The position numbers were made by a program, and so were the translations under genes. From Desulfatiglandales bacterium (GTDB lineage Bacteria; Desulfobacterota; DSM-4660; Desulfatiglandales; Desulfatiglandaceae), in assembly GCA_963662465.1 (NCBI GenBank), contig OY759599.1, positions 4,608,001 to 4,672,000 on the forward strand: a stretch of DNA of 64,000 bases, written 5' to 3'. Positions 6,727 through 60,788 of the stretch are shown here, in pieces. Position 1 is the first letter of the stretch; the number at the start of each line of letters is the position of its first letter. Below the pieces are notes generated by a model. The model saw only the letters and a program-made list of their open reading frames with translations, did no database searches and was not told the DNA's origin.

Positions 6727-7400
6727 ATGGCGTTTGATCAGGCCACCAGAAATAAACTCCAGAAATTTGTATCAGAAGCTCGGGGCTTACTTGCAGACGA
6801 ATTTTCCCGGCAAATGCAAAATGATTATGGCATGGACCCGGATACCGGGGCGGTGAGTACTATCGACAGTCTTCCCCGGTTAACGGATGCACAACACCAA
6901 ACCGCAAAATTATTGCGGGAAACAATGGCCCATTACCAGGCATCCGATTCCGGAAATGATGTAAAGGAGATCTTGGGCCGAATCGTCCGGGAGCAGGCGT
7001 TTACGGTTTTAAACCGGCTGTGTGCCCTGCGCATGGCTGAAGCCCGTGGCATTTTAATTGAATCCATTGCAAAAGAGTACAACTCAAAAGGGTTTCAGTT
7101 GTATGCGCGTGTAGCCGGGACCTCTTTGGGTGAAACCGGTGATGCCTATAGGAACTATCTGTTCAGCGTGTTTGATGAATTTGCAATCGATTTGGCCGTT
7201 TTGTTTGACCGATATTCCCCCATGGGCAGGCTTTTTCCAAAAGAATCCGTCCTTTTGAAACTCCTTGACCAAATCAATGATGTTGAGATCGAAACCTTGT
7301 GGGCCGAAGATGAAACCATTGGCTGGATTTATCAGTATTTTAATTCAAAAGAAGAACGGAAGAAAATGCGGGATGAATCCTCCGCCCCGCGAAACAGCCG
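6727..7400 (+). pseudogene. pglX: PglX (BREX methyltransferase) N-terminal fragment; catalytic region deleted
   Basis: REQAFT.LNRL.ALRM.EAR and ETIGWIYQYFN..EERK.MR..S.APRNSR, then homology stops. No FFTP, DPACGS or NPPY motifs. The ORF reads on in junk sequence to 7581. Confidence 0.85.
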
Positions 7401-8756
7401 GGTGAAGGTCTTGGAACCGAATTTCAAACTTCTGCCGAACCCATGGCTCCCATCGCCAAAGTGGTCTGTTCTTTTCTCAATACAAAAGGCGGAACGGTTT
7501 TCTGCGGAGTCGATGAGAATGGAAAAATTGTCGGCATTGAAGATGCCCGCTCCATTGCCTTACGTCTCCAGGCCTTTTTAAATGACGCTATTTCGCCCAA
7601 AGCCTTTTTTTCCGTCAATATCGATGAAGAAGACAGTCGATCGATTATCAACATTGAGGTGCCGCAGGGGAAAGATCGGCCCTATGTATTTGAAGGAGCG
7701 GTTTACATTCGTCAAAAATCGAAAACGCGTACATCTGACGCAATGACGTTAAGGAATATGGTGCAGACCCAATCCATCGAACCCGACCGTTGGGAGCGCC
7801 GGCCGTCCATGGCGCTGGAAGCAGAAGATCTGAACACCAATGAAATTCTTAAAACCATCGAGGATGCAGTTAGATCAGGTCGATTTGACTTCTCGAATGC
7901 GAAGGATCAAATTGCGGTCCTTGCGGAATTGGGGGTCTATCGGTCCTGAATGTACACCCAGGCCGCTGATGTGTTTTTCGCAAAAAATCCTGCCCTCAGG
8001 CATCCCCAGGTCCGGGTTCGCGCCACCCGTTTTGCCGAAGATAAAGGATCGAATGAATTTCTTGATTCCCGGATTTTTCAGGGGCCCCTGGTTCAGGTAC
8101 TAAACAAGGTGCTTGATTTTATGGAGAGAAACCTCCCCATCACTTCACACTTTAACAATGACCGGATTCAGCGGGAGGATAAACCGCAATATCCGGTGTA
8201 TGCGTTGCGCGAAGGACTGGTCAATGCGTTTGCCCACAGAGATTACACCGGTTTTTCAGGAGGTCTTTCAATCGGCATTTATCCTACAAGAATCGAAATT
8301 TGGAACTCCGGACGATTGCCGAAAGAACTGAAGGTAGGGGATTTACGTAAAAACCACCCGTCATTACCGACCAATCCGGATATCGCGCATTTGATTTACA
8401 TCAGGGGCCTGATGGAGCAAATCGGCCGTGGAACACAAAAAGTAATAAACGCATGCCGGGAGCATGGATTGCCCGCCCCTAAATGGCAGGATCAACCATC
8501 CGGCGTGACGCTGACATTATACTCAGCAAAGTCCGCGGTTTCTGATGAGACCCCATTAAATAACCGCCAGAAAGCCTTGATTGAGGCGCTCGCTCCCGGA
8601 GGTGAAATAAGACCTAAAGATTACAGGAAAAATTTCGCATCTGATGTGTCCGAACGCCAGGCACGGCGAGATTTAACGGTTCTCGAAGCATTAGCCTTGC
8701 TGGAGCGAAAGGGGAAAGGGGCGGGCACGCGATATGTGAGAGCTAAGCAGACATGA
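7401..8756 (+). pseudogene. AlbA_2 (Schlafen-like) - HATPase_c_4 - wHTH protein (RecG-annotated family), 5'-truncated, in-frame TGA at 7947-7949
   Basis: GEG..TEF...VCSFLNTKGG.VFCGVDE (AlbA_2); ALREGLVNAFAHRDY and EQIGRGT (HATPase_c_4). ORFs 7443-7949 and 7950-8756 are in the same frame. Confidence 0.8.
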
Positions 8757-11533: not shown

Positions 11534-13657
11534 ATGGATGAATTGGACAAGAAGTTAGGTTCTGTTTTTGAAGGCCGGATCGTCCGAAAAGACCTGTTGC
11601 ATCGAATCAAAAAGGGTACCAATGTCCCCACATTTGTGTTGGAGTTCTTGTTGGCGCGGTATTGTGCCAGTGATGAACCGGATGAAATCCAGGCAGGTAT
11701 GGAAGCTGTACTGGCAACGCTTCAGGATAATTATGTCAGACCCGATGAAGCCAATGCAGCCCAATCCAAAGTGGCAACCAATGGGAAGCATAAGTTTATC
11801 GACAAAGTACACGTTCGATATGTCGAGAAGGAAAAACGTCATTGGGCGTCTTTGGAAAATTTTAATTCCCAGCGCATTGCCATCGGCGAAAAATTTTATC
11901 GGGACAATGACCGGTTGCTGGAAGGCGGTATCTGGGCGGAAGTTACCGTTTCCTATAATGAATATGATGAGGATAACTATGCCTTTATCATTGATGATCT
12001 GCGCCCGATTCAATTGAGCCGATTCGATTTTGAACGATATGGTGAAGATCGGAAAAAACTTACGCGGGATGAGTGGCTGGATGTTATTTTGCGGTCCGTT
12101 GGATTAGAACCCTCTAAACTTTCACCCAGAATCAAATTTCATTACATTGCACGCCTTGCCCCGCTGGTACAGGCCAATTTTAATTTTATTGAACTGGGTC
12201 CCCGGGGGACCGGGAAATCATATTTCTTCAGTGAATTTTCACCTTATTCCACCTTGATCAGTGGCGGCCAATCAACAAAATCAGTCCTTTTCTATAATAA
12301 TGCCAGGAAAAAAATGGGATTGGTCGGCTTTTGGGATACTGTGGCGTTTGATGAAGTCGCAGGCATCAAAATTAAAGACCCGGATACCATCCAGATCATG
12401 AAGGATTATATGGCTAACGGGCGGTTTTCGCGCGGCGTGGAGGTGATTGCCGATGCCAGCATGGCCTTTGTCGGCAATATTGATCACTCCATAGAACAGA
12501 TTGTCAGATCCACCGAATATGATCTTTTCTTACCCCTGCCAAAGGAATTTGACCTGGCAATCATGGATCGTTTTGCCTGCTATCTGCCGGGATGGGAAAT
12601 CCCTAAAAACACATCCGCATATCTGACCAACAATTATGGATTCATCACAGATTACCTGGCTGAGGCCTTTCACTATCAATTAAAGCACCAAAACAAATAT
12701 GAAGTGGTGAACCATCGTGTTCGATTGGGCAAAGCCATTGAAGGCCGTGATGAAATCGGTATCAAGAAAACATTATGTGCGTTCTTAAAGATCCTTCATC
12801 CGATTGATGACCCCACGGACAAGGAGTTTGAAGAGTATGTGGCCTATGCAGTGGAGGCCCGGCGCAGAATAAAAGAACAGATGAACAAGCGGAAGCCCGA
12901 TGATGAATTTGCAAACATTAATCTTTCCTTTTTCACCGCAGATGGAAAAGAAATCATTGTTTATTGCCCTGAATCCAAAAACATCAAGGCTACCCAACAG
13001 CCTAAGCGCAAAAGCCTTGATATAGATTTTGACGATGAAGACGCCGGCGTTCAGGAAAAAGACCAGGTTGGTGCGGCAGAAAAAGCAAAGCCTGAAGAGG
13101 TGGAAACGCCTGCCGATATTTCAGAACCTGTAGCTGAGGAAAAGGATGATGAATCTAAGCCGGACCCAGAAATGCTCGATCTTAAAGAGCAGCATTATAC
13201 GATTTTTTATGGTGATATGGGTTTTAGCTATGAAACCATTATCGGGCCATATTTGAAAGGCGCAAAAGAAATCACCGTCGAAGACCCGTATATCCGTGTG
13301 ACGCACCAAATCCAGAATTTTATCCGCTTGTGCGAAACTATTGTTAAGCAAGCAACCATCCGCAAAATTAATCTCATCACCAGCTATGATGATAAAATAA
13401 ACATTTCCGAAATGCGGGATAGCCTGGAAGAACTCAAACAAAGCCTGCTTGAAATCGATATTCTTTTAGATATTAAACTGGACCCCAATATGCATGACCG
13501 GGAAATTCGAATCGACAACGGATGGGTCATCAAAATCGGCCGGGGTTTGGATTTTTATCAAAAACCCAGTTCCTGGTTTGAAATCGGTGTAAATGATCTG
13601 TCTTTACGCAAATGCCTTGAGACAAAGGTTGATATTTATAAGGCAGATAAGAATTGA
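11534..13657 (+). CDS. brxL: BrxL-family ATPase with C-terminal MIT_C (PLD-like) domain
   Basis: ELGPRGTGKS and VAFDEV motifs; C-terminus EDPYIR..HQ..NF and HDREIR.DNGW.IKIGRGLD; no Lon protease domain visible. Confidence 0.88.
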   Translation: MDELDKKLGSVFEGRIVRKDLLHRIKKGTNVPTFVLEFLLARYCASDEPDEIQAGMEAVLATLQDNYVRPDEANAAQSKVATNGKHKFIDKVHVRYVEKEKRHWASLENFNSQRIAIGEKFYRDNDRLLEGGIWAEVTVSYNEYDEDNYAFIIDDLRPIQLSRFDFERYGEDRKKLTRDEWLDVILRSVGLEPSKLSPRIKFHYIARLAPLVQANFNFIELGPRGTGKSYFFSEFSPYSTLISGGQSTKSVLFYNNARKKMGLVGFWDTVAFDEVAGIKIKDPDTIQIMKDYMANGRFSRGVEVIADASMAFVGNIDHSIEQIVRSTEYDLFLPLPKEFDLAIMDRFACYLPGWEIPKNTSAYLTNNYGFITDYLAEAFHYQLKHQNKYEVVNHRVRLGKAIEGRDEIGIKKTLCAFLKILHPIDDPTDKEFEEYVAYAVEARRRIKEQMNKRKPDDEFANINLSFFTADGKEIIVYCPESKNIKATQQPKRKSLDIDFDDEDAGVQEKDQVGAAEKAKPEEVETPADISEPVAEEKDDESKPDPEMLDLKEQHYTIFYGDMGFSYETIIGPYLKGAKEITVEDPYIRVTHQIQNFIRLCETIVKQATIRKINLITSYDDKINISEMRDSLEELKQSLLEIDILLDIKLDPNMHDREIRIDNGWVIKIGRGLDFYQKPSSWFEIGVNDLSLRKCLETKVDIYKADKN

Positions 13658-13687
13658 TTTTGATGAGACATCAGCTCCGAGTTATTG

Positions 13688-14275
13688 AATAGGACATATG
13701 AAAGGGTTAAGTCTGCCGTTGACTCTTGGTCCTTATCACCGGGAAGTTTATGAATCAGATGTCGTTGGGGAGTCCGTTGATAGTACGGACGCGGTTTAAT
13801 TCCCGATTAAACCGTGAGGCCAACATTAGGGATTATCACTCTGGGTAAGACCTTCCCGTCGCTCCCATCGAACGGGATTGCCAGAGGTAGGTTGCTCGAT
13901 ACACCGCAAGGTGGTCGGGAGAAGGGCCTGAGGCCGGGGGTCAGACCCGTTTTTCTCCCTGGAGGGGAGGATTAGGCCGAGGTGGCGTGCATGTTGGGGG
14001 AGGGGTTGCTAATTCTCTGCACCCCGTTGACCGAAAGTCATCTGAGTCATGAGTATGCGGGTATAACTCATGGTGGGCATGCATAGGTGTTAGGTATGGG
14101 GAGGATCTGAAAGGCACGGATAGGTGACCGAGGGAAGCCTTATAGCGCCCTGCGCATCAAAGTGACACACGATGTGTAGTAGGTTTTGGGAGACCGAAGG
14201 TTCTATGAGGTGGCAGCGCAGCCGTAAGGGCTGCACCGGTGATGCCCAGGATGAGATCGGTGGAGGGAAAAGGAA
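13688..14275 (+). ncRNA. Candidate large structured RNA (possibly group II intron D1-D3-like remnant)
   Basis: More than 10 stems, including 13702-13727, 13772-13790, 13791-13815, 13839-13886, 13902-13913 (GCAA loop), 13987-14084, 14048-14072 and 14218-14234. G-U pairs point to the + strand; no credible ORF. Confidence 0.55.
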
Positions 14276-14279
14276 GAAC

Positions 14280-14396
14280 ATGAAGTGCCGGTCATGTGGC
14301 CACAGATTCGCCGGAGAATTCTACGAAAGCTGCCCGGAGTGCTACAGTGTCAACACCGAAGGCACCGCCGATGAGAAGTACGATGGGTATCGGTGA
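14280..14396 (+). CDS. Small putative zinc-ribbon protein (38 aa)
   Basis: MKCRSCGHRFAGEFYESCPECY (CxxC-x11-CxxC); purine-rich RBS upstream. Confidence 0.45.
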   Translation: MKCRSCGHRFAGEFYESCPECYSVNTEGTADEKYDGYR

Positions 14397-15273
14397 TAAA
14401 ACGGATGAATTCAAACTGGGAATATCTTGACAATATAGCCAGGGATTTGTTTCCACTAAAATGCTGTAATACTTAATGAATATAACAAAAAGTGGCAGTT
14501 TGGCCGGCGACAAGGCATTAAGAAAAAGTCAGAAAAAACAGGTAAAGTCGAAAAATGAGAATAAGCAAGAAAAAAGAGGGACAAGAAATAGAGAGAGTTC
14601 AAAAATCAATATATTTGAAATCATAAAAACAGATTTTTTTCATGTCTTTTTGGGAATTAGGATGAAAAGTCTGGTGTCGTTATCTGTAAAGTGAGAGCAG
14701 CCGCTCGAAAGTGGCAAGAATGAAGAAAATTTTTGGTTTTGTTAGAGCCCTAAGAGCCCAAAAGGCGACGGCTTAATAGGGTTTGCATATCTCTACGCCC
14801 ATCAACAATCAATAAAATGTAGACATTGATTTCCATTATTCTGTAAATGATACGATACGGCTTAAAGAAGATTTCACGGTATTCGCGAATTCCCAATGCG
14901 GCCAATTCCGGAGGATATACACCTCACAGGGGAGAGTCAGACAAACTAACGAGTGCCGCTTCGATTTTTTCTAGAATATGATTCGCGCTATTCTGTGTGT
15001 CATGCCGCGCTATGTAGTCATAGATTTCTTCCAGGTCACGTGCAGCGTGTTCAGTCATCAGGACTTCGAAAGGCATCAACGATTTCTCCGGTTCTGACGA
15101 AGCCGTTTGACTACATCGGTGGCAGGTTCTACTTTGCCATATTCTATCTGCTGATTTCCAAGGGCTAGGATTTTCAGCAAAGCCATGGTTTCCTGGGTTT
15201 GCTCATAGAAGGTACAACCCTATGGTTTATCCTCTGAACCCGAATACCGGAAGACCCGGTTGCGGCAATCTCC

Positions 15274-60690: not shown

Positions 60691-60788
60691 ACCCGGCAAT
60701 AAATTGCCGGGCTATTGTCTGTCGCCCCGATGGGGCTTATACAGTCCCGTAGGGACGGCAGATAATAGCCTGGGGTTTTAACCCCGGG
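60691..60788. repeat. REP-like palindrome cluster
   Basis: CCCGGCAATAAATTGCCGGG, GCCCCGATGGGGC, GTCCCGTAGGGAC, CCTGGGGTTTTAACCCCGGG. Confidence 0.75.

Follow-up and report, generated by a model that had tools for sequence, protein, structure and literature searches.

A probable doubly truncated remnant of an ORF-less group II intron behind a BREX-type operon

The ornately structured segment behind the BREX-type operon of this Desulfatiglandales genome is very probably (we put it at about 0.92) the inactive, doubly truncated middle of an ORF-less group II intron of ~715 nt. It occupies positions 13774–14251 of the window, the 64,000-nt stretch of DNA analyzed here, to which all coordinates refer. 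The window copy corresponds to nucleotides ~30–505 of the complete intron, lacking 29 nt at the 5′ end and 210 nt at the 3′ end, and with them the 5′ splice site, IBS1, the strand that closes domain I (D1), the conserved domain IV (D4) hairpin, D5, and D6. Without a splice site, catalytic domain, or branch point, the remnant cannot splice, and it is probably functionless. The D1–D3 secondary structure is nevertheless present except for the D1-closing helices, and its stems appear to persist because the piece is young, being 94–96% identical to relatives that bear D5 and D6. The homology, the missing parts, the junctions, and a form of this locus that has lost less are direct observations, whereas the deletion mechanism, mobilization in trans, and the lack of function are inferred.

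Composition and boundaries of the span

A sequence-only reading of the window had treated 13688–14275 as one structured unit of ~580 nt. This unity was not borne out: the span consists of four parts, namely a REP-like repeat (13701–13729), a spacer (13730–13773), the intron piece (13774–14251), and, from 14241 onward, coding sequence that belongs to a truncated gene, so that both ends belong to other elements. The features are as follows, with D2, J2/3, D3, and D4 named according to their position and their counterparts in known introns.

11534–13657, + strand: brxL, last gene of the BREX-type operon (Pfam BrxL_N, BrxL_ATPase, and MIT_C; TIGR02688 above cutoff); context only
13701–13729, no strand: dispersed REP-like imperfect palindrome outside the intron, with stand-alone matches in relatives and in this genome
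13730–13773, no strand: non-intron spacer in place of the ~29 nt with which the intron should begin (splice site and D1-closing strand); no alignment to the intact 5′ ends of L113, L117, L126, or L142; same junction in record 7 of run X3
13774–14133, + strand: D1 minus its first ~29 nt; 94–96% identity to L113/L141 over 13773–14240, with covarying helices
14009–14013, + strand: EBS1 loop (CUAAU), assigned from the family EBS1–IBS1 pairing; its IBS1 partner is absent at the window copy
14113–14133, + strand: orphaned 3′ strands of the D1-closing helices
14134–14214, + strand: D2, assigned by position and motif; basal helix 14138–14145/14203–14210; local fold z −3.41
14215–14217, + strand: probable J2/3 linker AGC; AGCG motif ahead of D3 in 22/22 rows
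14218–14234, + strand: miniature D3 of a 6-bp stem and 5-nt loop that lacks both internal loop and distal stem; shared with L113/L119 and L141, and with L117 in a version with a compensatory change
14236–14251, + strand: D4 stub, 5′ strand of the basal stem only; relatives run on from 14251 into D4–D6
14241–14251, + strand: deletion junction, an 11-nt microhomology common to intron D4 and the small gene, placed by pairwise comparison and by loose ends (intron-type behind 14251, gene-type before 14241)
14241–14396, + strand: 3′ part of a small Cys-rich (CxxC...CxxC) gene, by DNA identity to paralogues L002 and L007

The repeat, for which "REP-like" is a label of the present analysis, occurs on its own (query positions ~1–49) at 25 places spread over 15 of 100 relatives, with unrelated flanks, and at three further places in this genome; its hairpin folds with a z of only −1.19. 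The spacer behind it has no homologue among the introns compared. At the other end, the small gene has lost ~51 codons from its 5′ side, and an internal ATG at 14280 would give a 38-aa product. Its DNA is 82% identical to L002, whose frame is 105 aa, and 73% identical to L007. The 38-aa piece has no Pfam match and the L002 protein no NCBIfam match. L002:1355–1672 and L007 represent a family of small acidic proteins with one or more CxxC...CxxC motifs. The sequence-only reading had also pointed to two stretches of group II-like sequence; one of these was misjudged, as GGTGGAGGGAAAAGG is part of the truncated gene and lies outside the intron.

The placement behind a BREX operon holds, with upstream genes that are BREX-like (BrxA, BrxC, PglZ, and BrxL). 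Within this operon, pglX (6727–8756) is cut at 284 aa with an N-terminal match to a 1210-aa model; its frame leaves the PglX match at residue ~225, after which follow the ORFs of an inserted RecG-C/ATPase-like gene. Because of this truncation the BREX system may be inactive. Beyond the small gene, on the minus strand at 14750–15186, lie pieces that we take to be a broken RelE/ParE-type toxin and a Phd-type antitoxin, for which no NCBIfam match was found. Far from this locus, at 60692–60788, are two Acido-Lenti-1 matches in inverted orientation.

Relatives and conserved structure of the family

Two close relatives, L113/L119 (identical, and hence one locus) and L141, are 93–95% identical to the window over 13770–14263, and a third, L117, is 78% identical over 13783–14253. 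None of them carries an RT, and each goes on with D4, a D5 that has the CGC triad, and D6, with the D5 of L113/L119/L141 ~565 nt past the anchor. Scores with the Rfam model Intron_gpII are 30.6–32.1 bits for L113/L119/L141 and 32.1–32.9 bits (E 0.004–0.007) for L113/L119 and L117, placing intact relatives below the gathering score of 40 bits. A D5 hairpin appears in the folds of both L113 and L117, and a bulged A is present in D6 of L117. The complete introns measure 715 nt (L113) and 711 nt (L117), start with GGGCG and GCGCG, and pair EBS1 with IBS1 at 5/5 and 4/5 positions, respectively. At the 3′ end the copies share ...CCCACU and then diverge; a CU end (branch A at −7) and an AC end both fit. 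L141 has lost its 5′ end independently and L142 has lost its 3′ part; L126/L142 look like a fifth short-D3 copy, with D3 itself outside the available sequence. These D5/D6-bearing relatives bear out the suggestion, made from the window alone, that the segment is the decayed 5′ half (D1–D3) of a group II intron, and the absence of a GUGYG start, an RT ORF, and D5 is confirmed for the window copy.

The wider family includes RT-bearing introns. In this genome, four equal matches of 75% proved to be four copies of a 1.93-kb RT intron (L008:1004–2931 and L009–L011), three of them complete and one cut at its 3′ side, with a GGGCG start, a CGC triad, and a probable CU end. Their ORF matches TIGR04416 at 392 bits against a cutoff of 300, D5/D6 score 37.9 bits with Intron_gpII in 3/4 loci (again below Rfam gathering), and nhmmer aligns the window to the four-copy intron over 13812–14228 with E 2e-27. 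A search for D5 motifs in this genome returned only three RT-intron copies and one unrelated match. A D4 hairpin common to ORF-less and RT-bearing members (92% over 37 nt), absent from the window copy, is a putative RT-binding site. The sequence-only reading had held that an intron whose relatives carry RT and D5 would reduce its candidate to a remnant; the close relatives have D5/D6, and the wider family has an RT.

We also surveyed other sequence collections. Outside this genome, an RT search of 401 genomes of the phylum found only other introns (34–45% identity), and one of viral contigs found a single 60% relative without its 5′ half. A pattern scan of genome contigs gave 35 loci, five of which are genuine homologues: three that encode an RT, one that has D5/D6 but no ORF, and one fragment. 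With a second pattern, 33 loci were found in metagenome contigs, of which 13 have an RT and a 3′ end, one is an RT fragment, and seven are ORF-less with D5; nine others are cut by contig ends, one is truncated at the 3′ side, and two are false matches. Phage and plasmid blastn searches gave no match, and viral pattern scans returned either no loci or, in one case, five loci lacking nhmmer, RT, or D5 support. A pattern for the short D3 recovered only the window among 209 genomes of the class, many of them incomplete.

Several members show features of their own. A second ORF-less form, of ~900 nt and with a long D3, is represented by L099, L118, L124, and L136, so that the ORF has been lost in at least two size classes of the family; in L136, a 27-nt palindrome is inserted into a D1 loop that is invariant elsewhere (alignment columns 129–155). 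The short-D3 copies of L141 and L117 both adjoin (at L141:~560–615 and in the 3′ flank of L117) what are presumably RAYT/Y1 transposase remains and REP-like repeats, and in L141 a repeat of this kind occupies the place where the intron 5′ end would be expected.

The predicted structure was evaluated in an alignment of 22 D1–D3 sequences (the window and 21 homologues, with near-duplicates, fragments, and short or degraded contigs left out). RNAalifold predicted 134 pairs, 77 with double changes. For 80 pairs taken from this structure, 96.6% of cells pair and 53/80 covary, with a covariation score of 0.536 versus 0.225 for shuffled and 0.11–0.13 for slid controls, values somewhat inflated by the relatedness of the sequences and by scoring the structure on the alignment that yielded it. 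Covariation, named beforehand as a check, is thus present in the wider family. The D2 basal helix is paired in 97.7% of cells and shows compensatory changes. A test independent of the alignment-derived structure is provided by EBS1: in 19 members (the window, L141, and L131 have no 5′ exon and were left out), the loop pairs with the last five bases of the 5′ exon at 91/95 positions, compared with 67.8 ± 3.2 after shuffling (0/2000 as good), which fixes the 5′ splice site at GGGCG. In the two D1-closing helices the window forms only 2/4 and 1/9 pairs, whereas L113 and L117 form 4/4 and, in that register, 5/9.

All 14 stems listed in the sequence-only reading do occur in the sequence at the places given, but as family features they fared unevenly. 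Seven hold across the 22 members (the CCGT/ACGG core, GCGGTTT/AAACCGT, CTCTGG/CCAGAG, TCCCGT/ACGGGA, CACC/GGTG, GTGCATG, and TGAC/GTCA); GCAGCC/GGCTGC is confined to the short-D3 subfamily; and CATGAGT/ACTCATG is weak in that register (6/7 pairs in only 5–10 rows), although RNAalifold does find a helix at this place. Three found no support: GTTGG/CCAAC, whose 5′ arm is non-intron flank and which pairs in 1/22 rows at three of five positions; GGGAGAAG/TTTCTCCC, in place of which the family pairs TTCTCC with GGAGGA; and CACCGGT/ATCGGTG, which spans the deletion junction. Closure of the whole RNA by an 8-bp complement (13736–13743/14236–14243) was rejected, as it was chosen post hoc and the 3′ strand pairs at the end of D4 in intact introns. 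The + strand orientation proposed for the RNA is that of the intron sense strand to which it is homologous. The excess folding stability it was expected to show is modest and appears on both strands (z −2.78 for the 588-nt span on the + strand, with 1/100 shuffles as good, and −2.41 on the − strand); it is weaker for the 468-nt core (z −1.65, 5/100 shuffles as good).

History of the locus and rival explanations

Fragmented introns, truncated at either end through incomplete reverse transcription or rearrangement, are described as common in bacteria in the available text of PMC2504315 and PMC4424553. A less deleted form of the present locus is found in record 7 of run X3, which covers 13300–14251 (the brxL end, the repeat, the same 5′ junction, and D1–D3) with eight differences and two gaps; in an X3 contig, a 232-nt loose end behind 14251 opens with intron D4 sequence, as read from its first 30 letters. 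Because this locus shares the 5′ junction yet continues into D4, the 5′ loss came first and the 3′ loss later. Alignment of the window with homologues of the small gene breaks off before 14241, and 14241–14251 matches the intron and the L002 paralogue at 10/11 positions each. Run X1 agrees with the assembly over 13300–14412 and may be the source sample. RNA runs X9 and X10 include contigs over the intron part but were rejected as evidence of transcription, which contigs cannot show; the X9 contig comes from another copy, since it has intron-type ends on both sides.

We propose that intact family members fold as D1–D6, read the 5′ exon with EBS1, and presumably splice and spread, to which the distinct insertion sites with matched EBS1/IBS1 among intact relatives point indirectly. 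The ORF-less members, which retain the conserved D4 hairpin, would probably borrow an RT/maturase in trans from long-D3 RT relatives such as L008. One copy would have inserted behind brxL, its first ~29 nt being lost either at insertion, through incomplete cDNA synthesis, or afterward. Later, a deletion between the 11-nt look-alikes in D4 and in the small gene, presumably then located downstream, may have removed the rest of D4, D5, D6, and the start of the gene.

Three other explanations were weighed against this truncated intron. The remnant might have been exapted: D1–D3 could now give the BREX operon a structured 3′ trailer or a regulatory RNA, one conceivable effect being a more stable brxL mRNA. 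It shares its strand with brxL and lies 116 nt past the stop codon, the scan for terminator-like sites found none in between, and most of its local helices are intact. A promoter scan found no site on the + strand (two sites found versus 2.7 expected), and read-through from brxL could transcribe the remnant. However, the piece was not found at the brxL locus in 208 genomes of the order and class (many incomplete), the related X3 locus keeps the intron's 3′ continuation, other copies of the subfamily stand in unrelated contexts, and the pglX truncation suggests that the operon itself may be dead. No functional link of the piece to BREX was found, and we regard exaptation as very unlikely. The second possibility raised in the sequence-only reading, an undescribed stand-alone large ncRNA of ~580 nt (ROOL/GOLLD/OLE-like), would suit the fold z-score on the + strand and the Rfam scan, which gave no covariance-model match inside 13688–14275, either at gathering or at E ≤ 10 (HEARO, GOLLD, ROOL, and OLE included). 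It is refuted by the D5/D6-bearing relatives at 93–95% identity: every close homologue with enough flank is an intron or an intron fragment, and the ends of the span belong to neighboring elements, which leaves this reading with hardly any probability.

Chlamydomonas tscA is a piece of a trans-splicing tripartite intron, and the window piece could analogously be a middle segment that contributes most of D1, D2, D3, and the first part of D4, with the ends transcribed separately. The retained anatomy, from the 3′ part of D1 to the D4 stub, suits such an arrangement, and an isolated 49-nt 5′ stub of the RT intron, identical to it across the end of the exon and the ~40 nt that follow, is present at G000:C1:2169853–2169901. 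Yet the closing strand of this stub fits the RT intron and not the window piece. Even with four substitutions allowed, the genome contains no match to the missing 5′ piece; the missing 3′ 210 nt is matched best in RT-intron copies and otherwise only by short D5-like stretches; and microhomology accounts for the 3′ break. The genome search for the missing pieces largely refutes the tripartite reading, the least credible of those considered. Circular permutation was also rejected, as relatives have the collinear order and no D5 lies upstream in the window. The evidence thus favors the doubly truncated intron remnant.

Short domain III and affinities of the family

In the window, L113/L119, L141, and L117, D3 is only 17 nt, whereas the other 18 of the 22 aligned rows have a long D3 with an internal loop. 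As it is common to the window and its relatives, at four distinct sites, the short D3 is a subfamily trait and not decay of the window copy. The basal internal (E) loop of D3, described in the available text of PMC8637638 as a shared group II feature, is absent from L113/L119 and L117. No short-D3 copy with its own RT occurred among the loci fetched, and no described short-D3 or GGGCG/CGC lineage was found in the literature searched, which included few subscription papers.

ORF-less bacterial group II introns mobilized in trans are known, such as the ORF-less copies of B.c.I7 in the portions available of PMC2504315 and the review PMC4424553. Like them, the present subfamily has a six-domain ribozyme without an RT ORF, several unrelated sites, and a related RT intron at hand; unlike them, it is marked by a 17-nt D3, a start of the GGGCG type, and a probable CU end, and the window copy is doubly truncated. 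The CGC triad, short D5, 5–6-nt EBS1, and endonuclease-less RT resemble group IIC (GsI-IIC and O.i.I1, as described in part of PMC4748821), and the best PDB match of the family RT is the GsI-IIC RT (E 1e-72). In contrast, D1 of L113, at ~390 nt, is larger than the D1 of group IIC. In a sampled FastTree phylogeny with a weak backbone and no labelled references, the family RTs group by themselves with 0.98 support, apart from the large CGC clade, and for this reason we do not file the family as class C. Judged by eye, hairpins precede some copies and not clearly others (compare IIC insertion behind terminator or attC hairpins). The text available of Miura et al. 2022 (PMC8919778) places the bacterial g6, U1, and U2 IEP types as unclassified lineages near class C, and the family may be one of these types, known here by description only; that of PMC3552965 gives no RNA features for comparison. 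Circularly permuted (CP) group II RNAs, as the accessible part of Roth et al. 2021 (PMC8637638) describes them, place D5/D6 ahead of D1, use an AGC triad, and keep an E-loop in D3. The family resembles these in its splice-site motifs GGGCG and, probably, NU and in having no ORF. It differs in its collinear domain order and its CGC triad, and no D5 flanks the piece in the window, whether upstream or downstream.

A tentative picture of the parent, to which we give somewhat less than even odds, is an active, trans-mobilized, D3-minimal ribozyme of ~710 nt (GGGCG...CU, CGC-triad, sub-Rfam-threshold) that has shed the conserved internal loop and distal stem of D3, possibly selected to escape D3-homing introns and possibly a relative of the CP lineage, in which identical boundary motifs occur.

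As a dead intron fragment, the window feature itself matters little. It does carry a caution, that ornate, Rfam-negative candidates for new ncRNAs can be D1–D3 pieces of intron lineages that score below threshold. Its main value lies in the intact relatives reached from it. The internal loop and distal stem of D3 are thought to accelerate catalysis, and L113 and L117, as compact complete ORF-less introns with a naturally minimal D3, allow a direct test of whether that loop is dispensable in splicing and mobility.
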